64,000 nucleotides of DNA from an uncultured delta proteobacterium. Lineage in GTDB: Bacteria; Myxococcota; Myxococcia; Myxococcales; Myxococcaceae. The translations under genes and the position numbers were made by a program. Location: NCBI GenBank assembly GCA_963771175.1, contig CAVYSY010000046.1:160001-224000 (forward strand), in the 5' to 3' direction. Of this stretch, positions 2,384 through 50,445 are shown one piece after another. Below the pieces are notes generated by a model. That model was not told the origin of the DNA, did no database searches, and saw only the letters and a program-made list of their open reading frames with translations. Within the stretch, counting starts at the first letter, position 1; each line of letters begins with the position of its first letter.

Positions 2384-4873
2384 TTGGCTGAGTCTCTTCG
2401 ACGTCGTTGGTCCGAGGCCTTCATCCGGGGCACGCTTGCGCGGCCCTGGCGGGTCGTCCTGCTCTTCACGGTGCTGGCCCTCGTCGGCACGGTGATGGCC
2501 TCGCGCCTGGAGTTCCGTGGCTCCTTCGTGGAGCTGCTGCCCCAGGAGGCGCGTGAGGTGCAGGATCTGACGCGCGTGGCGCAGAAGGCCGGCGGCGACG
2601 GCTACCTCGTGGTGCGCGCGCAGGGGCTGAAGCCCGAGGCGCTGCGGACCTTCGCCGACACCCTGGCGAAGAAGCTCGAGACGCTGCCCGAGGTGCGCTA
2701 CGTCGAGCACCGCTTCGACGTGGGCTTCTTCCAGGATCGCGGCCTGCTGCTGCTGCCCACCGAGAAGCTCGGGGCGCTGCGCCAGGACGTGGACGCGCGG
2801 CTGCGCTACGAGAAGCAGAAGGCCAACCCGCTCTTCGTGGACCTGGAGGCGGGCGAGGAGCCGGCGGACTTCGAGCAGATCGTCAAGAAGTACAGCCCGG
2901 AAGCGCCCATGCGCGAGTACCTCGGGAGCACGGACGGCTCCGAGGTGTACCTGATGGTGAAGCCGGGCGGCACCGCGGGAGACCTGGTCTTCGCGCAGCA
3001 GCTCGTGGACGACGTGAAGCGCGTGGCCGACGAGGTCGCTCAGGGTTCACCCGGAGTGAAGCTGGACTACGCGGGGGCCTTCCAGGCGCGGCTCGAGGAG
3101 GACAAGGTGATGCGGCAGGATCTGTCGCGCGCCGCCATCCTCTCGGCGGTGATGGCCATTGGCATCATCTTGCTGGCCACGCGGCGACTGTGGGCGCTGG
3201 CGGTGGTGGGCGTGCCCGTCATCTTCGGCGTGTCGCTGACGTTCGCCTTCGCGGAGCTGGCCATCGGCCACCTCAACGTCGTCACGGGCTTCCTGGTGGC
3301 CATCCTCATCGGCCTGGGCCTGGAGTACGGCATCCACCTGTCCATGCGCTACTGGGAGGAGCGGCGCGAGCACCCGGCCGCCGAGGCGCTGGCCAACACC
3401 GTGCGTGGCACCTTCGCCGGCGCCCTCACCTCGGCGCTGACGAACGCGGCGGCCTTCTTCGTGCTCCTGTTCGCCCAGTTCGATGCCTTCAAGCAGTTCG
3501 GCATGCTGGCCGGTGTGGGCGTCATCATGGCCGTGCTGGTGGCGTACGGGCTGGGCCCGGCGCTGCTCGTGCTCGCCGAGCGCCTGCGCCCGGGCCGCAA
3601 GTCCGCCGCCGCTCACGCCCCCGAGGCTCCGGCGGATGCGCCGCGGCAGAACCTGCCCGGCAAGCGCATGCCCACGCCGGCCATCGTCGTCATCCTGCTG
3701 TCGGTGCTCGGCTTCGCGGGCTACTCCGTCTACGTGTCGTCGCGCGTGGGCTTCGAGACGAACATGCGCAACCTCAAGGGCGACTCGCCCTCGGTGCGCC
3801 TCGATGACCACATCGTCGAGCAGACCGGCTCGCCGCTCAACCCGGCCATCCTCCTGGTGGACGACCTGAAGCAGGCCCAGGTGGTGCAGGAGGTCATCTC
3901 CGAGGTGAAGGCCCGCCATGGCGCGGACTCGACGTTCAAGCAGTCCGCCTCGCTCAATGATCTGCTGCCCCAGGACGTGGCGGCGCACCAGGAGCAGATC
4001 GCCGGGCTGCGCCAGACGCTGGAGAAGCTGCCCGAGAGCGCGAAGAAGGATCCCCGGCTGGACTCCGTGAAGAAGATGCTGGAGGCCCAGCCCTACGGCC
4101 CCGAGCAGCTGCCCGTGGAGGTGCGCCGTCGTTTCGAGGCGCTGGACGGCAAGGGCATGTTCCTCCTGCTGTTCCCCTCGGTGTCCAACCACGACACCCG
4201 GGAACTGGCGGCGTGGGCCTCGCAGATCGACGAGGTGGTGGATGGCGCCAAGGCCCGGGGTGTGAACCTCGCGGTGTTGGATAGCAACCGGATCGCCGCC
4301 CGCATCTTCGCGATGGTGCGTGGGGACGGCCCGTTCATCCTCTGGGCGGCCGCGGCGGTCGTCTTCCTGACCATCCTCATCAGCCTGCGCAGCTTCAAGC
4401 GCGCCTGCCTGGTGGCTGGGCCGCTGTTCCTGGGCATGCTCTGCCTGGCTGGAGGGATGTATCTGTTCGACATCCAGCTCAACTTCATCAACGCCGTGGT
4501 GCTGCCCAACCTGCTCGCCATCGCCGTGGACAACTCGGTCCACCTCTTCCACCGGTACGAGGAAGAGGGCCCGGGCTCGCTGGGTCACGTCGTGCGCCAC
4601 ACGGGTCTGGCGGCGGTGGTGGCCACGCTGTCCAACGCGGCCGGCTACGGCGCTCTGTTGATCTCCCATCATGCCGGCCTGAAATCGATTGGTCAGATTG
4701 CACTTCTGGGGGTGGTGTGCACCTTCCTGGGAACCACGGTTTTCTTCCCGGCGATGCTCGCGCTGCTCGAGCGGTGGAAGGGGCGGAAGGAGGAGGGGAG
4801 CAAGGTGAGGCGTTTGGAGATCGGCCAGTCCGGTGAGGTGTTGACAGAACCGGAGGAGCGTAAATCTGCGTGA
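2384..4873 (+). CDS. MMPL/RND family lipid transporter
   Basis: Two repeats of TM + large periplasmic loop + 5 TM; GLGLEYGIH and AIAVDNSVH TM4/TM10 motifs. Likely TTG start at 2384. Confidence 0.85.
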   Translation: MAESLRRRWSEAFIRGTLARPWRVVLLFTVLALVGTVMASRLEFRGSFVELLPQEAREVQDLTRVAQKAGGDGYLVVRAQGLKPEALRTFADTLAKKLETLPEVRYVEHRFDVGFFQDRGLLLLPTEKLGALRQDVDARLRYEKQKANPLFVDLEAGEEPADFEQIVKKYSPEAPMREYLGSTDGSEVYLMVKPGGTAGDLVFAQQLVDDVKRVADEVAQGSPGVKLDYAGAFQARLEEDKVMRQDLSRAAILSAVMAIGIILLATRRLWALAVVGVPVIFGVSLTFAFAELAIGHLNVVTGFLVAILIGLGLEYGIHLSMRYWEERREHPAAEALANTVRGTFAGALTSALTNAAAFFVLLFAQFDAFKQFGMLAGVGVIMAVLVAYGLGPALLVLAERLRPGRKSAAAHAPEAPADAPRQNLPGKRMPTPAIVVILLSVLGFAGYSVYVSSRVGFETNMRNLKGDSPSVRLDDHIVEQTGSPLNPAILLVDDLKQAQVVQEVISEVKARHGADSTFKQSASLNDLLPQDVAAHQEQIAGLRQTLEKLPESAKKDPRLDSVKKMLEAQPYGPEQLPVEVRRRFEALDGKGMFLLLFPSVSNHDTRELAAWASQIDEVVDGAKARGVNLAVLDSNRIAARIFAMVRGDGPFILWAAAAVVFLTILISLRSFKRACLVAGPLFLGMLCLAGGMYLFDIQLNFINAVVLPNLLAIAVDNSVHLFHRYEEEGPGSLGHVVRHTGLAAVVATLSNAAGYGALLISHHAGLKSIGQIALLGVVCTFLGTTVFFPAMLALLERWKGRKEEGSKVRRLEIGQSGEVLTEPEERKSA

Positions 4874-7029: not shown

Positions 7030-7095
7030 CGCTGGGACACCCGGGTGATGGGCGGCTTGCGACCCCCAGACCCGGGTGCTACATCCCCGCGCAAC

Positions 7096-9030
<1,935 letters not shown>

Positions 9031-18518: not shown

Positions 18519-21500
18519 ATGGCGATACCGAACTACCGGCTGACGGAAAAACTGGGAGCTGGCCCATATTCCTCCGTCTTCAAGGGCTGGCACAAGGACT
18601 CGCCCCAGCGCCCGCTTGTCATCAAGATTCTCAAGCCGGAGGTCGGCTCGCTAAGTCGGAAGCGGTATTTCAGGCAGAAGATCGAGCACCTGAGCACCCT
18701 GAACGACGAGCGACTCATCCCGCCGTCCGACTTCATCGAGCATCGCGGCTTCCAGGTCATCGTCCGGGATTACTTCAACGGCCTGACGCTCGACCAGTGG
18801 GCCAAGACCCAGCCCAGAATCTCGCTGGAGTCGTTCTTCGACCTCGCATGCAAGCTCGCCGACGCAGTCGAGGCCTCTCACAAGGTGGGCATCATCCATG
18901 GGGGCATCAAGCCGCACAACATCCTCGTCCAGCCCGCCACGGGAGAGATTCGACTCGTCGACTTCCTCACCCCGATGGATGTCCGCAACGTCAGTCATTT
19001 CATCTATGACCGCGCGTTCGTCGAAGGGACGCTTGCCTACACCTCACCCGAACAGACGGGCCGGATCAGCCATCGCGTTGGCTTCACGACCGACCTCTAT
19101 TCCCTCGGAATCGTGCTGTATGAGCTGCTGTCGGGCCGGCTGCCGTTCTTCTCGACCGATCCGCTCGAGCTCATCCATTCGCACCTGGCGGAGGAGGCTC
19201 CTCCAGTCCACGAGCTCAACCCCGACGTGCCGCCGATGGTGAGCAGGATCATCGCCAGGCTCACTCGTGAAGGAACCGGAGAAGCGCTACCAGTCGGGGG
19301 CGGGCCTTCTGGCGGATCTCCAGCGGTGCAGGGAGGAGTACAGGGCGCACGGTGGAGCCGTCGGCGAGTTCGCCCTGGGGACCCGCGACCGGACGCACCG
19401 GGTGATGTTCGTCTCGAAGATGGTCGGCCGCGACAAGGAGGCGAAGACCATCCTCGGTGAATACGAGCAGGTCGCGAACGGGGCATTTCGCAGCCTCCTG
19501 ATCTCCGGCTACTCGGGAATCGGGAAGACGCGCCTCATCCAGGAGCTCCAGCGGCCCATCGTCAAGAGCCACGGCTACTTCACGTCAGGGAAGTTCGACG
19601 TCTACCAGAAGAACATTCCCTACAGCTCCATGATTCAGGCGTTCCGGAATCTCATCCGGACCATCCTGACGGAGAGCAACGAGCGAGTGGCCTGCTGGAA
19701 GAGGCGAATCCTGGAGGCCGTTGGGAGCCGCGGGCGAGTCATCACGGAGATTGTCCCTGAGCTCGAGACGCTCATCGGGCCCCAACCCGAGGTGCCGGCA
19801 CTTCCTCCCATCGAGGCCCGGAACCGCTTCCACGACGTCTTCGGCAGGTTCCTCGGCTGTCTCGCGAGCGCTGAGAGCCCCCTCGTCCTTTTCATCGACG
19901 ACCTCCAGTGGTGCGATATCGCCACCCTGGAGTTCCTCGCGAACATCTTCGCGGACGCCCAGGAGCATCCGTACCTGTTCCTCCTGGGCGCGTACCGCGA
20001 CAACGAGGTCGACGACAGCCATCCCTTGTCGAAGTTGGTGCGCTGCATCCGGGCGGGGGGCAGCCCCTCAAGGAAATCCATCTCGGGGCGCTCCAGGCCG
20101 AGCACACCCATGAGATGGTGTCCTACATCCTGGCCTCTCCGCTGCAGGCCACCCAGTCCCTGGCGCACTTCATCTTCGATTTGACGGAGGGCAACCCGCT
20201 GTTCGTCAGCGAGAGCCTGTCCTATCTCCACAACGAGAACCTGCTCTCCCTCGATGAAGACACGCACGAGTGGCACTGGAACATGGCGAAGATTCGCCAG
20301 ACCCGGATGCCCTCCAGTGTCGTCACCATCTTCAGCTCGAAGGTGCAGAGGCTTCCCAAGGAGACCGTCGACCTTCTGGAGTCCTGCGCCTGCATGGGCA
20401 ACTCGTTCCATGCGGAGGACCTCGCCCAGGCGCGTGAGCTGAGCGTCGCCGAGGTGTTCCGGAGGCTGAACCCCGCGCTGAGCCACTGGCTGCTCGTCGA
20501 GAACAGGGAGCAGTTGCAGTTCGTGCACGACAAGGTCCAAGAGGCGATCCTGAGTGCGATACCCGGGGATCGGCGCCGGCGGATTCACGCGCGGCTGGGG
20601 CGGCACTTCCTGTCGCGGGTGCCTCCCGGTACGGACCTGCAGGAGGCCGACCATCTCTTCATGATTGCCTCGCACATGAACCTGGGGCGCGAGCCAGTCC
20701 TCGAGACCGAGGCGGCCTACGCGCTCTCTCATGTCAACTACTGCGCTGGCTCCAAGGCGCTCGAGTCCCTGGCGACCGAGGCGGCAAACGACTACTTCCA
20801 CAAGAGCCTGGAAGCCCTGCCCGAGGACTGCTGGGAGGTCCAGTACGAACGCACCTTCAAGATCCTCCAGAAGCTCGCGAAGACGGAGCTCATGGTGGGT
20901 CGGTCCGAGAAGTCGGAGTCGCTCCTCAACCAGCTCCTCGAGCACGCCAGGTCCGAGCTGGACAAGGCAGAGGCGCTCGCGGAGCAGACCACGTCGCTCT
21001 CTTCGATTGGCAACTTCGCCAAGGCCATCGAGACCGCGAATCGAGGGCTCGCGTTCTTCGGCAAGTCGCTGCCAGAAGAGGGGGCGCTCGCGGAGCGCAA
21101 GCGCGACGCCATCATGGCCGAGATCGACGCCGGGTATTCCGACGTCTGGTCCACCATCCTTCGCATGCCGTTCACGGAGGACAGGAAGAGCAAGGTGGAG
21201 CTCGCGTTCTACGCCGAGCTCATCCCCGACCTCTACCTGTCAGGGCTCGTCCCCCAGCTCTATCTGTCGGCCGCGCAGTCCACGCGGAACTGCCTCGCCG
21301 GAGGCATGGACGAGTCAGTCATCTATTCGTTCTCCATCATGGGGCTCTTCCTGGGGGAGCAGGGGCGGTTCGAGGAGGCCTTCAGGTACGAGGACCTGGC
21401 GAAGAACCTCTCCGAGAGACACCCCAACACCTTCGGCGCCACTCGCGGAATCAATGGCGTCGTCTGGTGCAACATGCACTCCCGCAGTCGGCCGGAGGAG

Positions 21501-23759
21501 ATCGTCAAGTACTGCCACAAGGGCATCCAGTCCGGGAAGAACTGCGGGGACCTGTACAACGCCGGGCTTTGCTACGGCCCGTTGATGTGGAACCTCCAGG
21601 TGCGCGGAGCGAACCTGCTGGAGATCGAGAGTTGCGCGCGCGAGTGCCTGCTGTTCTCGCAGAAGTTTCAGCTCTCCTTCTCCGTGGGTCTGGCGGAGTC
21701 CATGGAGGCCGGATGGATCAGGCCGTTCAGGAAGGACTACAGCCCCCTCCCCATGGAGGAGAAGATAGCGAAGTGGAAGGCGGCCAATCACATCGCTTCC
21801 ATTGGGGCGTACTACGTGCTCCTCGGCCTCGCGTCGTACTATTTCGGCGAACATGAGGCCGCGGAAGTGAATCTCCAGTGTGCCGCCCGATACATGCACG
21901 GCCTGACCGACAACGTCCTCAAGCGCCAGTGGTATGTGTTCCGGGCCCTCAACGCCATCCGCCTCCATGCGCGGGGACTGTCCTACAAGTCCCACGAGGA
22001 GCTCATGGAATATGTCGGCCCCCTACTCGGAAAGGTGGAGACGTGGGCAGGACTCGGGCCGCTGCTCGTGCCCTATCTGATGCTTCTTCGTGCGGAGCTG
22101 CAGCGCATCGCGGGGGATTTCAGGGCGACGAGAGGAGCCTATCTCGACGCAATCGATGCTGCCCGGAGGGAGGGCTATACGTTCCTCGAAGGGCACATGA
22201 ACGAGCGTCTGGGCATGTTGCTGCGGGAGTCCGCGGCGCCGACAGCCGACGTGTATCTCAAGAGCGCGATGCGGCTGTACCGGGAGTGTCACGCGGAGCG
22301 GGCGGAGGCCTTGCTGGCCGAGAGGTTCCCGGACTCCGTGGAGGAGGTTCGGGCGGTCTCGGGTGAGGCCGAGGCTTCCCCGACGCTTCCGAGCCTCGAT
22401 GTGGACTACCTCATGAAGTCCGCACGCTCCATTTCGGCGGAAATCGATACGGAGTCGCTCCAGAAGAAGATCATGAACGTGGTGCTCGAGTCGTCCGGCG
22501 CGCAGCATGGTTACCTGCTGCTGGCGGAGGGCGGCGAGCTGCTCGTCGTGGCGGAGAGCCATGTCGGTGAGAGCCGGTCGCGCGGGGCCCTGCGTCGAAA
22601 GCTGAGCGAGTCCCCGGAAATCTGCGGGTCCATCGTGCGCTACGTCTCCAGGACGAAGCAGCCGCTGATTCTCGATTCCGCCTCCGAGCGCGGCCCGTTC
22701 ACGAACGACCAGGAGACACAGGCCCTGAAGTTGCGTTCGGTCTTCTGTCTTCCTCTCCTCGAGAAGGCGAGGCTGCTCGGCGTGCTGTATCTCGAGAATC
22801 GGCTCTCCGACTCCGTGTTCACGGAGGCCCGGACCGAGATGACCCGCCTCCTGGCCGCCCAGGCGGTGATTTCACTCGACAACGCCGAGCTCGTCGAGCG
22901 CATGCGGCGAGCGGAAGAGCAGATCAGCGCCTCGCTTCGTGAGAAGGACGTCCTTCTGGGTGAGATCCAGCAACTGCTCGCCAGGGAGCAGGCGGCGAGG
23001 GCCGAGGCCCAGGAGGCCAACCGCGAGAAGGACATCTTTCTCGCGAAGCTCTCTCATGAGCTCCGGACTCCGCTGACGCCCATCCTGGCGTGGTCTCAGG
23101 CGCTGAGGCAGGGAAAGCTCTGCCCGGAAAAAATCGCCAAGGCGGCCCTGGTCATCGAGCGCAGCGCCAGGGGGCAGCGGCAGCTCGTCGAGGACCTGCT
23201 GGATGTCTCGAGAATCGTTCTTGGCAAGCTCTCCCTGGAGCGCCAGGAGGTCGCCGTCCCGGACGTCCTGGAGGCGGCGATCGACTCCGTTCGACCCGCG
23301 GCGGAGGAGAAGCCCATTCGGCTCGTGGTGGACCTCGCCCTGAGGGTGCCACCGATTCGTGGGGATGCGGGCCGGCTACAGCAGGTCTTCGCGAACCTGC
23401 TCACCAACGCGGTCAAGTTCACGCCGGCGGGAGGGGAGGTCTTCGTCCGGTTGCGGGCCGGTGTCATGCCGGCCCAGCCCGGGCGAGAGGCTGTCGTCGT
23501 CGAGGTCTCGGACTCGGGGCAGGGGATTGATCCGGCGTTCCTTCCTCGCGTGTTCGATCGTTTCTCGCAGGGAGACGACTCGATGGCTCGTTCACGCCGC
23601 GGGCTGGGGCTCGGGCTCTCCATCGTGCGAAGCATGGTCTTGCTGCACGGTGGCAGCGTGGAGGCTGAAAGCCCGGGCCTTGGGCGCGGGGCAACGTTCC
23701 GGGTCGTCCTCCCGGTGGGCGTGCCCCGGCTCATCGCCTCCAGCGCGCAGCCCTCATGA
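18519..23759 (+). CDS. Hybrid Ser/Thr kinase-AAA ATPase-GAF-histidine kinase (HstK-like); frameshifts at ~19266 and ~20055
   Basis: Three consecutive ORFs join: kinase (YTSPEQTGR), Walker A GYSGIGKT and Walker B LFIDDLQW, GAF (LYLEN), HisKA SHELRTPL and HATPase NAVKFT/DSGQG/GLGLGL. Confidence 0.85.
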
Positions 23760-23770
23760 GCCGCACGCCG
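23748..23770. repeat. Left copy of 23-bp direct repeat bounding the NRPS cassette
   Basis: CAGCCCTCATGAGCCGCACGCCG, identical to 49901-49923; contains the hybrid kinase stop codon. Confidence 0.9.
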
Positions 23771-23780
23771 CTCCGGCTCC

Positions 23781-45837
<22,057 letters not shown>

Positions 45838-45910
45838 ATAGACTTAACTCTTTTAATGAGGACAAGCAGGAAGTCAACAAGCTCCGAGGATCTCTCTTGG
45901 GAATCGGAGC

Positions 45911-47188
45911 GTGCCTCGGACTGCCCAGGGAGCTCCCATCCTCGCGGTATTGAAACATCGTGACTTCGCGCTCATCTGGTCGGGCCAGCTCGTCTCCGGC
46001 CTGGGGGACTGGCTGCGGAACATGGCGCTGCTGTACTGGGTGTTCTCCGTCACCGGGGGTGAGTCGCCCCTGGCCACGGCGGCCATCACGGTAGCGACCA
46101 CGGCCCCGGCGCTCCTGCTGGGCCTGACGGCGGGCACCCTGGCAGACCGATGGGAGCGGCGTCGAGTCCTCATCTTCTGCGACGCCACGCGCTGCGTGCT
46201 GAGCCTGCTGCAGTTGGTGGCCGTGGCGAAACAGAGCCTGCCCCTGGCGTACACGGTGGCCTTCTGCTCGAGCGCGGTGGAGCAGTTGTACGATCCAGCT
46301 CGCGTCGCGCTGATCCGCACGACGGTGCCTCGCGAGGACCTGGTGGCAGCCAGTTCCCTGCGGCAGACCACGACGAGCGCCATCATGATCCTGGGAATGG
46401 CGCTCGGCACCGGCATCTACTTCGTGCTGGGGCCGTGGGTGAGCTTTGCCCTCGACGCGGCATCTTTCTTCGTGGCGATGCTGATCAACCTGGCGATCCG
46501 CACCCGGTGCGTGAGCACCAGCGCGCGAGCCGTCTCCTCGGTATGGAGGGAGGCACGAGAGGGGCTGGAGTACGTGCGCGGCAGCCTCTTCGTCCGCAGC
46601 ATGCTGGTGCTCGGGGCCATGGCCATGGCGGCCTCTGGCTTGATCGAGGTGGTGCAGATCTACCTGGTCACCCGGGAGCTGGGGCTGCCGGAGGATCGCC
46701 TGGCGTGGCTGGGCACGGCGCTGGGCGTGTCGATGTTCGCCGGTTTCGCGGTCGCCGGCTTCTTCCATCGCCGGCTGCGGTTGGAGTGGCTTCCGGGCCT
46801 GGGGCTGGGAGTCTGTGGCGTGGGCGTGATGCTGATGGCCATGGCCCCATCGCTGCTGGTGGCCATCGTGGGCATGGTGCTGGTGGGCCTGGGCAACGTG
46901 CTGCTCAACGTGGGGCTGGGACCGCTCATGCAGACGCATGTCGAGATGGGGCTGCTGGGGCGGGTGATGGGGGTCTTCCGCTCCGTGAGCACGGCCAGCA
47001 TGTTGTTGGGGGCCAGCAGTGCGGGCTACCTGATTGCCTATGCGAACACGCGGCAGGTCACTGCCGCCGCCGGTGTGCTGCTGGTGCTGGCGGCACTCCT
47101 CGCTGGACGCCGGCTGGCTCGCGCGGTCGTCACGCTGCGGGCCGAGCACCCCGAGGAGCACGTGCTACCCACCGCCACTGTGAAGTGA
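45911..47188 (+). CDS. MFS efflux transporter (EntS/MefA-like)
   Basis: RDFALIWSGQLVSGLGDW, GTLADRWERRRVL motif A, about 12 TM; divergent from NRPS A. Confidence 0.88.
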   Translation: MPRTAQGAPILAVLKHRDFALIWSGQLVSGLGDWLRNMALLYWVFSVTGGESPLATAAITVATTAPALLLGLTAGTLADRWERRRVLIFCDATRCVLSLLQLVAVAKQSLPLAYTVAFCSSAVEQLYDPARVALIRTTVPREDLVAASSLRQTTTSAIMILGMALGTGIYFVLGPWVSFALDAASFFVAMLINLAIRTRCVSTSARAVSSVWREAREGLEYVRGSLFVRSMLVLGAMAMAASGLIEVVQIYLVTRELGLPEDRLAWLGTALGVSMFAGFAVAGFFHRRLRLEWLPGLGLGVCGVGVMLMAMAPSLLVAIVGMVLVGLGNVLLNVGLGPLMQTHVEMGLLGRVMGVFRSVSTASMLLGASSAGYLIAYANTRQVTAAAGVLLVLAALLAGRRLARAVVTLRAEHPEEHVLPTATVK

Positions 47189-47194
47189 GCCGAT

Positions 47195-49894
47195 ATGTCG
47201 AGTCTCGGTGTGTCCGGTGAGCGGGAGCGGGAGCCGGCCCGCGTGCATCCGATACGTGTCGGAGCCCCGGGGGTGGCCGTGCTGGCCCTCTGGCTGGTGG
47301 GACTCTCCGCGCAGGCGCAGGAGACGGCCCCCGTCGAGCAGCGTCAGCTCCAGGCTCTTCAGGTGGAGAAGGGCCCGGTGCTGGACGGCGTGCTCGATGA
47401 CGAGGTCTGGAAGCGCGCCTCCTTTATCCGGGATTTTCTGCAGAAGGAGCCCGAGCAGGGCACGCCCGCTTCGCTGCGTACGGAGGTGGCCTTCGTCTAT
47501 GACGCGGACGCCCTCTACGTGGGCGCGCGCATGTTCAGTGTCTCTTCCGAGGACATCGAGACGGTGATGACCCGGCGTGACGAGAGTGGCTCCGCCGAGC
47601 GGTTCATCATCTCGCTGGACACCTACCGGGACCGACGCACCGCCTACAGCTTCGCCGTCACCGCCGCGGGCGTGCGGGTGGATTGGTACCACCCGGATGA
47701 CCACGAGTACGTCCGCGACCTTTCCTTCAACCCCGTCTGGGAAGCCCGCACCACCCAGGTTTCCGACGGGTGGATCGCCGAGCTGCGCATTCCCTTCTCG
47801 CAGCTGCGCTTCGACGCCGCCAACGAGCAGGTGTGGGGTCTCAACATCAACCGCTTCATCCCCCGCCGCAACGAGGACGACTTCTGGGTGGTGGTACCGC
47901 GCGATGTCACCGGCTGGTCCTCGCACTTCGGCGAGCTCTCCGGCATCCGCGGCGTGGCTCCCTCGCACCGCGTCGAGCTGGTGCCCTATGTGGCGGGAGA
48001 CCTGCAAGTGAGCTCGGGCGCGAACCCGCGTGCCGGGACGCCCTTCGAGAACCAGCGCCCGTACTCAGGCCGCGTGGGTCTGGACGGCAAGGTGGGCCTG
48101 GGGCCCAACCTCAACCTGGACCTCACGGTGAACCCGGACTTCGGGCAGGTCGACGCGGATCCAGCCCAGGTGAATCTCACGGACTTCGAGACCATCGTCG
48201 ACGAGCGCCGTCCCTTCTTCACCGAGGGCAGCCAGCTCTTCAACAACAACAACACCAACAACAATGCGCCGGCGTACTTCTACTCACGGCGTATCGGCGC
48301 CGCGCCACGGCTCAGGGCGAGCGCTGACTTCGTCGAGCCTCCGGGGGCCAGTCCCATCTGGGGCGCGGCGAAGCTCACCGGGCGGTTGTCCTCGGGCCTG
48401 TCCCTGGGTGCACTGGGCGCCTTCACCGGCGAGGGGTCCGCGGACACCTATGACTTCGCGACCCAGGAGCAGGGCCGGGTGAAGTTGGACTCGCGCACCG
48501 GCTACGGCGTGCTGCGTGCGCAGCAGGAACTGGGCAAGGGCTCGACGGTAGGTGCCACCCTCACCACGGTGTATCGGGACATTGGCGAGGGGGAGGGGCG
48601 CACGTTGGAGCTGACCCGTGAGGCCTATACGGGTGGCGCGGACTTCCGGCTGCGACTGCTCGGTGGCGAGTACATCGTCTCCGGTTACGCGGGTGGCAGC
48701 CTGGTGCGCGGGGACCCGGCGGCGATCACTCGCCTGCAGCGCTCCAGCGCCCGCTACTTCCAGCGGCCGGATCAGACGTACGTCCAGCTGGATCCCCAAG
48801 CCACCTCGATGTCCGGTTACGCGCTGGGGGCGAAGGTGGTCCGCCAGAGTGGCGAGCACTGGCTGTGGAACAGCAGCATCGGAGTCGAGTCCCCAGGCTT
48901 CGAGCTCAACGACCTGGGCCGGCTCGGCACCACGGATGACATCGACGTCAACCTGGGCCTCACCTACCGGGAGACGAACCCGGGCCCGCTGCTGCGTGGA
49001 TACAACCTGAGTCTGCTGGGCTACGGCAATTGGAACCACGGCGGGGTGCGGACGGTGAACCAGTTCGTGCTCTCCAATGCGGTCACCTTCCTCAACTTCT
49101 GGGAAGCCAGCCTGGCGCTCACCTATCTGCCGCGTGCATTCTCGGACTCGCTCACCCGCGGCGGGCCGCTGATGCAGACGCCGCAGGGATTGGAGGCCGA
49201 GCTCACCCTGAACAACAACTCCTCGGGCACCCAGCTCTGGAACGTGGACGCCCTGGGGTGGACGTACGAGGACGGCAGCCGTGGCGCCATCTTGACGGGG
49301 GCGCTCACCGTGCAGCCCTTCCGCAACCTGAGATTGTCGCTCGAGCCCGTTGCCTCGCTCTACACGGAAGCGCGCCAATACATGGCCACGCTGGGGGAGG
49401 GGAGCGCGGAGACGTACGGCAAGCGCTACGTCTTCGGCACGGTGCTGCGGCGCGAGTTGGCGCTGCGGCTGCGCGCCAACCTCTTCCTCACCCCGGACCT
49501 GAGTCTCGAGGCCTACGCCGAGCCCTTCGCCTCCAGCGGTGTCTACAGCGAGCTGGGCGAGCTGGCCCGGGCACGTGGGCGGCTCCTGCGCAACTACGGT
49601 GAGGACGGCACGTCCATCTCGCGGCTCGAGGACGGCAGCTGGGAGGTGATGGACGGCGAGCGCTCGTTCCTGCTGGACGATCAGGACTTCAACGTGCGCT
49701 CGTTCCGCGCCAACGTGGTGTTGCGCTGGGAATGGCGTCCGGGCAGCACCCTCTTCCTGGTGTGGCAACAGGACCGCTCCGCGAACGAGCTCCTGGGCAG
49801 TGCGCTGGCGCCTCGTGCCCTGGGCGATGCACTGCTCAGCCCGGGAGGCCACACCTTCGCCGTCAAGCTGACGTGGTGGTTCCCCGCGGGCTGA
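47195..49894 (+). CDS. DUF5916-like outer-membrane protein with N-terminal CBM9/DOMON-like domain
   Basis: Signal peptide; LDGVLDDEVW, DLTVNPDFGQVDAD, ERRPFFTEG, FYSRRIG; beta-signal-like end VKLTWWF. Confidence 0.8.
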   Translation: MSSLGVSGEREREPARVHPIRVGAPGVAVLALWLVGLSAQAQETAPVEQRQLQALQVEKGPVLDGVLDDEVWKRASFIRDFLQKEPEQGTPASLRTEVAFVYDADALYVGARMFSVSSEDIETVMTRRDESGSAERFIISLDTYRDRRTAYSFAVTAAGVRVDWYHPDDHEYVRDLSFNPVWEARTTQVSDGWIAELRIPFSQLRFDAANEQVWGLNINRFIPRRNEDDFWVVVPRDVTGWSSHFGELSGIRGVAPSHRVELVPYVAGDLQVSSGANPRAGTPFENQRPYSGRVGLDGKVGLGPNLNLDLTVNPDFGQVDADPAQVNLTDFETIVDERRPFFTEGSQLFNNNNTNNNAPAYFYSRRIGAAPRLRASADFVEPPGASPIWGAAKLTGRLSSGLSLGALGAFTGEGSADTYDFATQEQGRVKLDSRTGYGVLRAQQELGKGSTVGATLTTVYRDIGEGEGRTLELTREAYTGGADFRLRLLGGEYIVSGYAGGSLVRGDPAAITRLQRSSARYFQRPDQTYVQLDPQATSMSGYALGAKVVRQSGEHWLWNSSIGVESPGFELNDLGRLGTTDDIDVNLGLTYRETNPGPLLRGYNLSLLGYGNWNHGGVRTVNQFVLSNAVTFLNFWEASLALTYLPRAFSDSLTRGGPLMQTPQGLEAELTLNNNSSGTQLWNVDALGWTYEDGSRGAILTGALTVQPFRNLRLSLEPVASLYTEARQYMATLGEGSAETYGKRYVFGTVLRRELALRLRANLFLTPDLSLEAYAEPFASSGVYSELGELARARGRLLRNYGEDGTSISRLEDGSWEVMDGERSFLLDDQDFNVRSFRANVVLRWEWRPGSTLFLVWQQDRSANELLGSALAPRALGDALLSPGGHTFAVKLTWWFPAG

Positions 49895-49899
49895 ATCGC

Positions 49900-50295
49900 T
49901 CAGCCCTCATGAGCCGCACGCCGGGTCTCCCCGCCGCGTGAGCGCTCGGCCACCTTCCGCCGGACCTCTTCCATGTCCAGCGCCTTCGCCTGGCGCACGA
50001 GATCCTCCAGTGCGGCCTCGGGCAGCGCGCCCGCCTGCTGGAACAGCAGCACCCCGTCCCGGTAGAGGCTCAGCGTGGGCATGGCTTGGATGCCGAGCGC
50101 ACCCGCCAGCCGAGGCTGATCGTCCACGTCGACCTTCACGAACGTGGCGTCCGGGTTCTTCGCGGCCACGCGCTCGAAGATGGGGCCGAAGAATCGGCAC
50201 GGTGCGCACCAGCGCGCCCACCAGTCGATGACGAGAATCCCCGGCCGGGCGACCGCCTCCGCGAAACCCTTCTGATCCAAAGTTCCCACCGACAT
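49900..50295 (-). CDS. trxA: Thioredoxin
   Basis: WWARWCAPC active site; GIQAMPTL; GGAGG RBS. Confidence 0.9.
   Translation of the reverse strand: MSVGTLDQKGFAEAVARPGILVIDWWARWCAPCRFFGPIFERVAAKNPDATFVKVDVDDQPRLAGALGIQAMPTLSLYRDGVLLFQQAGALPEAALEDLVRQAKALDMEEVRRKVAERSRGGETRRAAHEG
49901..49923. repeat. Right copy of 23-bp direct repeat, at the 3' end of the thioredoxin gene
   Basis: CAGCCCTCATGAGCCGCACGCCG, identical to 23748-23770. Confidence 0.9.
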
Positions 50296-50445
50296 GTGCA
50301 TCCTCCTGGGAGCCGGACCGCGCCGGCCCTTCCAAATGTGAGAGCCAGGAGGGGCCCTGGAGGATTCACCGCGCCCGCATCCGAGGGGGATTCACGCGGT
50401 GACAGTCACATCGCGAAGCCGAGCACGTACAGCTAGACTGGTCGG

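Follow-up and report, generated by a model that had tools for sequence, protein, structure and literature searches.

Insertion of DNA with a long target duplication was reportedly recognised by Nobusato et al. in 2000, as cited by Furuta et al. 2010. The available sections of Furuta et al. (2010; PMC2853133) describe target duplications of 25-423 bp, without mobility genes and often spanning start or stop codons, in which the cargo is a restriction-modification system. In the same sections, the first screen of Furuta, Abe and Kobayashi had a 20-kb limit for the insert and a 30-bp limit for the repeat, and the second screen included cases of 25 and 29 bp.

A second class of comparable elements is formed by the CIMEs, as defined in the accessible part of PMC5704250. 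CIMEs carry no integration or transfer genes of their own, have att cores that are common wherever the element sits and target the end of a conserved tRNA or housekeeping gene; they require a common att site and a partner integrase. One CIME, the thaxtomin region TR1 of Streptomyces scabiei, shares with the locus described here an NRPS cluster of ~20-26 kb between short repeats and the lack of an integrase of its own. As far as the accessible text of PMC8369830 goes, TR1 adjoins an ICE, undergoes excision and occupies a fixed att site.

The present locus lies in a window of 64,000 nucleotides from the genome of an uncultured soil-dwelling member of the Myxococcaceae (G000; 69% GC, 9.8 Mb, 82% complete), with neighbouring genes whose named homologues are from Archangium and Vitiosangium. 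Two NRPS genes, an MFS gene and a DUF5916 gene, together the cassette, stand between two copies of a 23-bp sequence (Table 1). As in the long-target-duplication class, the direct repeat is longer than 20 bp and unique in the genome, with two exact copies. The insert has no mobility gene, no integrase match lies on its contig (C46), and the target-derived repeat spans stop codons, with the host genes staying whole. An empty allele in relatives would be a further likeness, but the one seen here, in metagenome run X1, is inexact, lacks a 24-bp segment and was read over 30 letters. Unlike the members of that class, the cassette brings in a 26-kb biosynthetic cluster that lacks a restriction enzyme able to make the break, and the insert exceeds the 20-kb limit of the first Furuta screen while the repeat falls below its 30-bp limit. 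The cassette works like the long-target-duplication class but is no restriction-modification case. In contrast to TR1, it has no partner element that could be found, no site common to its carriers and no known excision. Probably, though with appreciable room for doubt, the repeat is the duplicated 3′ end of a thioredoxin gene (trx), produced by recombinase-free insertion of the four-gene NRPS cluster between touching kinase and trx ends.

Table 1. Features of the locus and related duplications; positions are those of the window, except in the last row, where contigs are named.
Feature	Position	Strand	Remarks
Ser/Thr kinase-AAA-GAF-histidine kinase gene (left neighbour)	18519..23759	+	three reading-frame pieces, breaks near 19262 and 20055
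Segment absent from the X1 empty allele, 24 bp	23720..23743	+	imperfect inverted copy of part of the repeat inside
Four-base extension of the duplication	23744..23747	+	pairs with 49897-49900; single mismatch inside
Left repeat copy (duplicate of trx 3′ end)	23748..23770	+	holds kinase TGA stop, 23757-23759
NRPS gene 2	23781..34728	-	three C-A-T modules and terminal epimerase-like domain, no thioesterase; frame break near 29495
NRPS gene 1	34823..45837	-	C-A-MT-T, C-A-T, C-A-T; frame breaks near 41390 and 35855
MFS transporter gene	45911..47188	+	divergent from NRPS gene 1
DUF5916 gene, CBM9-like N-terminus	47195..49894	+	groups with cassette-borne copies
trx (right neighbour; target gene with duplicated 3′ end)	49900..50301	-	
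Right repeat copy	49901..49923	+	last trx codons (trx on minus strand)
Further integrase-free 23-30-bp gene 3′-end duplications	C33:311332-316967; C6:55209-59524; C26:543376-556898; C33 near 537767		

A genome-unique duplication of the thioredoxin 3′ end

The direct repeat, CAGCCCTCATGAGCCGCACGCCG, is exact over 23 bp, has an 8-bp palindrome in its core and cannot be extended exactly. Adding four bases at the left lengthens the pair to 27 bp with one mismatch, which is the third base of the trx stop codon; this codon occupies 49900-49902, and its third base falls just outside the 23-bp repeat. The copies are 26,130 bp apart. The original prediction, made from the sequence, was of a perfect repeat bracketing the cassette, with the kinase stop in one copy, the thioredoxin 3′ end in the other and the outer stop codons of the cassette 10 and 6 bp inside. 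All of this agrees with the measured coordinates, the 10 bp belonging to the NRPS stop and the 6 bp to that of DUF5916. The spacing adds little evidence, because tight convergent stops are ordinary in this genome: 46% of 715 predicted convergent gene pairs are no more than 25 bp apart.

Chance, a dispersed repeat or an assembly artefact could also account for such a pair, and would be in keeping with the assembly frame breaks in nearby genes and with the 40 isolated two-copy direct repeats of at least 23 bp that the genome holds at 5-100 kb spacing. This reading is nonetheless extremely unlikely. Only two copies of the 23-mer occur in the 9.83-Mb genome, even when up to 3 mismatches are allowed, so that the search for further copies suggested by the original prediction found no dispersed repeat. 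None of 100 shuffles gave two matches to the 23-mer, and base composition leads to an expectation of 0.0004 exact 23-mer pairs in the window. Both junctions occur in independent samples. The right one is bridged by contigs of X20, X1, X2 and X3 (four of four runs, from four studies), and the left one by contigs of X20 and X1 (two of four runs, with X6 and X8 having no cover there). The bridging contigs differ by ~1-3% from G000 and therefore probably do not come from its source sample; the duplication thus also withstands the check for an assembly artefact. In addition, the repeats match boundaries set independently by four other genomes.

Evidence for the origin of the repeat came from the neighbouring genes. 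Three trx homologues at 84-85% identity have the same length and similar terminal residues, and the kinase resembles P0012, its best full-length homologue, only as far as 23717, short of the left copy. Since the right copy encodes the trx tail and kinase homology ends before the left copy, the left copy duplicates the trx end, and the ends of kinase and trx were formerly adjacent. The ancestral kinase tail is not readable, because a search for kinase homologues returned nothing above 58% besides the kinase itself. Frame breaks affect the kinase twice and the NRPS genes three times. At one kinase break, X1 contigs have an additional base (20054/20060), and the orthologues of the NRPS genes in one other carrier of the block (G133) are intact at 3723 and 3636 aa, which makes an assembly error likely at this kinase break.

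Between 17100 and 23747, a Vps62-like gene and the kinase lie in a stretch of lower GC content (64.5% vs 68-69%); no close homologue of the kinase was found in the genus or in the protein collection, and the stretch is probably an earlier acquisition. Run X20 lacks the kinase part 18550-23529, with 18520-18549 fused to 23530, keeps the repeat and the cassette, and has 49 additional bases between the MFS and DUF5916 genes. A methylmalonyl-CoA mutase gene (7065-9007) is absent from an otherwise collinear block of genome G003, in which its flanks are joined, and a DUF2804 neighbour is present in G003 at 93%, but beside different genes.

The four-gene cassette and its relatives

A Pfam scan of the cassette gave two minus-strand NRPS genes, then plus-strand MFS and DUF5916 genes. 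Homology of NRPS gene 1 to relatives starts near 45750, and in the six-module NRPS (23781-45837) modules 2-5 share 93-97% DNA identity in their A-domain regions. The terminal domain of NRPS gene 2 is presumably of the epimerase type, judged by its motifs. Specificity codes of the A domains, read by eye, suggest what we take to be a basic residue, four Ile/Val and Asp; these are a lead only. The MFS protein is likely an exporter. DUF5916 had no PDB match, its AlphaFold model has a pLDDT of 35 and is unusable, the Atlas returned DUF5916 clusters only, and the term was absent from the open-access literature searched. The same literature gave no description of the NRPS cluster and its scar, and neither is mentioned in the accessible part of PMC12766979. 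The six-module cluster, with a terminal epimerase-like domain and no thioesterase, appears uncharacterised.

The scan of the cassette ORFs found no recombinase or transposase family, in agreement with the original prediction that the cassette carries no recombinase. Only NRPS, MFS and DUF5916 genes were found in the insert, with no restriction-modification genes among them, and end-anchored terminal inverted repeats were lacking (best 10 of 25). A DNA transposon was considered and rejected, as there are no terminal inverted repeats, no transposase family and no IS110 match in G000.

The claim that the four genes form one unit whose boundary is set by the repeats received support from another genus, g69, in which 4 of 32 genomes (G133, G186, G187 and G198) carry a collinear NRPS-NRPS-MFS-DUF5916 block, split across two contigs in G187. 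These blocks are 78-85% identical in nucleotide sequence to that of G000, and their homology to it ends at window positions 23788-23791 and 49894, within ~20 bp of the repeats. The DUF5916 proteins of the four carriers cluster with the G000 copy (81-85% identity, 100/100 support), and the eight host-genus copies that adjoin rapZ/PTS genes form a separate group at 71-73%, with this context confirmed by Pfam in G010 and G008. The rapZ-EIIA slot is empty in G000, and DUF5916 is held elsewhere in 9 of 17 genomes of the host genus. No close donor of the block was found. Two other candidates were rejected. DUF5916 is not a passenger from the rapZ/PTS locus, since the same block is collinear in g69 and DUF5916 groups with the cassette copies; nor was the cluster truncated at the repeat, since that of G133 ends alike with intact ORFs.

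A related NRPS-MFS cluster occurs in the host genus, in G004. Its MFS gene and NRPS gene 1 are 76-78% identical in nucleotide sequence to those of G000, and it has the same C-A-MT-T start. In contrast to the G000 cluster, which has an epimerase-like end without a thioesterase and is accompanied by DUF5916, the G004 cluster has a thioesterase end followed by a FAD-binding gene, with no adjoining DUF5916. The thioesterase-free form accompanies DUF5916 in five genomes and the thioesterase form of G004 is without it, which hints at a role for DUF5916 in release or export. Near the G004 cluster lies a CBASS-like defence locus (L070:7-7628) with a SMODS nucleotidyltransferase, SAVED, an AAA ATPase and a helicase. 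In G133, DUF5916 faces a convergent gene of 198 aa (L214:11558-12151) that matches no Pfam or NCBIfam family; a similar gene end stands 3′ of DUF5916 in G187 and G198, a homologue lies 16 kb off in G186, and the gene is absent from the G000 block.

An empty allele and the route of insertion

The original prediction also held that the cluster had been inserted between formerly adjacent kinase and trx genes, and that relatives might show an empty site. The first part stands, the repeat being native trx coding sequence and the two ends being joined in an X1 contig. The second found no usable locus among 60 relatives, in which neither the kinase 3′ region (67% in the best long match) nor trx has a close orthologue; the kinase-trx join came instead from that one metagenome contig, and inexactly. 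The exact 23-mer had no match in the metagenome contig collection or in the genome contig collection, and a trx search of metagenome contigs returned distant homologues only (31-51%).

The X1 contig aligns from 49896 rightward, with 107 loose letters before that point. The 30 displayed letters correspond to 23690-23719 in 29 of 30 positions, their place next to the junction is borne out by other alignment rows, and this 30-mer has no other match at up to 6 mismatches in G000 or the fetched loci. In this contig (one contig of one run, read over 30 letters) the kinase 3′ end runs directly into the trx end, without the cassette, and a single base stands in place of the 24 bases 23720-23743 of G000. 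The resulting 23-bp gap may explain why the contig gave no alignment to the left flank at a 92% threshold. Depth in X1 is ~9 for cassette contigs and 34 for a trx contig, and by subtraction at most ~30 for the junction contig. An exact crossover between the repeat copies removes the trx stop, giving 350 aa instead of 133. With the X1-type join, trx stays at 133 aa and the kinase stop falls at 49941. The X1 empty allele is not an exact crossover product.

A different view of this allele is that it arose by later imprecise deletion of the cassette (23720-49895) and is not ancestral, in which case the insertion would stand and the repeats would act mainly as a route to loss. The junction does retain 49896-49900, five bases on the cassette side of the right copy in G000, the locus is prone to deletion, as the loss from the kinase in X20 illustrates, and a deletion sparing the trx stop would be favoured over exact crossover. 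However, the breakpoints lack microhomology, and the X1 trx contig is ~96% identical to G000 vs ~99% for the cassette-bearing contigs, which fits a sister lineage. Later loss would, moreover, leave the origin of the left copy unexplained, and we consider it very unlikely.

With recombinase-free insertion as the preferred explanation, we infer the following steps of break and repair. Foreign DNA with the block would have been ligated at a staggered or resected break where the kinase and trx ends converge, with fill-in repair copying ~27 bp of the target. The insertion probably persisted because the stop codons of both neighbours lie in the duplicated stretch, so that kinase and trx stay complete. 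The block itself would be self-sufficient, with promoters facing outward from the NRPS-MFS gap, so that both of its edges are gene 3′ ends. Counting against such a route, a plain duplication needs one later substitution, in the left copy at the trx stop position, and a separate 23-bp indel.

The original prediction called the duplication att-like, and the locus could be a decayed site-specific element, a CIME whose copies are attL/attR cores of a tyrosine integrase that targets the trx 3′ end and has been lost or acts in trans. Several features fit. The repeat length is within the 8-60-bp range, and the repeat includes a gene end, as for integrative elements in the accessible part of PMC5704250; the palindrome lies in the core; and an imperfect inverted pairing at the left junction (23727-23734 with 23756-23763) is equalled by random 24-mers in 2-4% of trials. 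The cassette has no integration or transfer genes of its own, TR1 provides a precedent for an NRPS cluster, and G000 has 8 tyrosine-integrase and 3 serine-recombinase matches; a helper recombinase may also be missing from the 82%-complete genome. Yet none of the 11 matches lies on contig C46, and the cassette has neither room for an integrase nor a remnant of one. Flanking repeats are absent from the four other carriers: no direct repeat above 13 bp was found between their 1.4-kb flanks in four of four, and the best match to the repeat in the G133 flanks is 14 of 23. The repeat of G000 is thus not an att core common wherever the element sits. Nor is the target a conserved tRNA or housekeeping gene end, as the window has no tRNA and trx is a patchy accessory gene: a search of 17 other genomes in the genus yielded no close orthologue (68-73% at best, along a portion of the gene), which makes trx a poor integrase target. 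A crossover at the core would remove the trx stop, and five viral matches to a 17-mer gain at most one of the remaining six bases. With neither a common att site nor a partner integrase found, an att site is not supported, and the label did not survive these comparisons; a CIME is unlikely here. It would also require that several unrelated gene ends in G000 showing the same pattern had each lost an integrase of their own.

Similar gene-end duplications and their implications

The genome contains 78 isolated two-copy repeats of at least 23 bp, and in five of them both copies are near a stop codon, where ~0.6% would be expected. Five other gene ends have a 23-30-bp downstream copy ending no more than 5 bp from a stop codon. 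Over six such intervals, a Pfam search of 39 ORFs found no integrase family; one of the six intervals has a weak Y2_Tnp fragment (E 4e-5). At C33:311332-316967 and C6:55209-59524, the two copies cease to be identical inside the stop codon and the distal one lacks a stop; trx shows the same. Copies of at least 23 bp of a gene's own end, searched for in 6626 genes, numbered 13 downstream and 7 upstream, with 6/7 and 5/6 in mid-gene controls; the genome-wide enrichment is weak.

One such integrase-free locus is the polA 3′ end (C25:65656-67699), where a 2-kb insert with an Imm11-like gene stands between two 27-bp copies of the polA end. Among 15 relatives, five carry one copy only, in a clean site that runs on into the G000 distal flank, two have a decayed second copy and eight none in the stretch fetched. 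Empty, filled and decayed alleles of the site thus occur among the relatives, and inserts akin to this one are scattered widely over the genus. At two other loci, a second copy was seen in 0/10 and 0/10 relatives, several of which have other inserts there.

These observations do not constitute evidence for a new site-specific recombination system. Genes are known to move by insertion without a dedicated recombinase, although the process is poorly understood, and the present case adds a 26-kb biosynthetic cluster, in which no cargo nuclease can account for the break, to the restriction-modification genes for which insertion with long target duplication was described. Filled, decayed and empty alleles at polA across the genus open the process to tests by comparative genomics. 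It also gives an apparently uncharacterised thioesterase-free NRPS cluster a base-level boundary, confirmed by four other genomes, that makes for easy cloning as a unit. A bolder proposal is that these myxobacteria possess a general means of insertion, independent of integrases, in which the final 23-30 bases of a gene, as far as the stop codon, are copied and the cargo can be as large as a whole cluster, the stop preference being mechanistic and not only a product of selection. This is distinctly unlikely at present. If true, such a general route would explain how biosynthetic clusters build up in myxobacteria without visible mobile elements.
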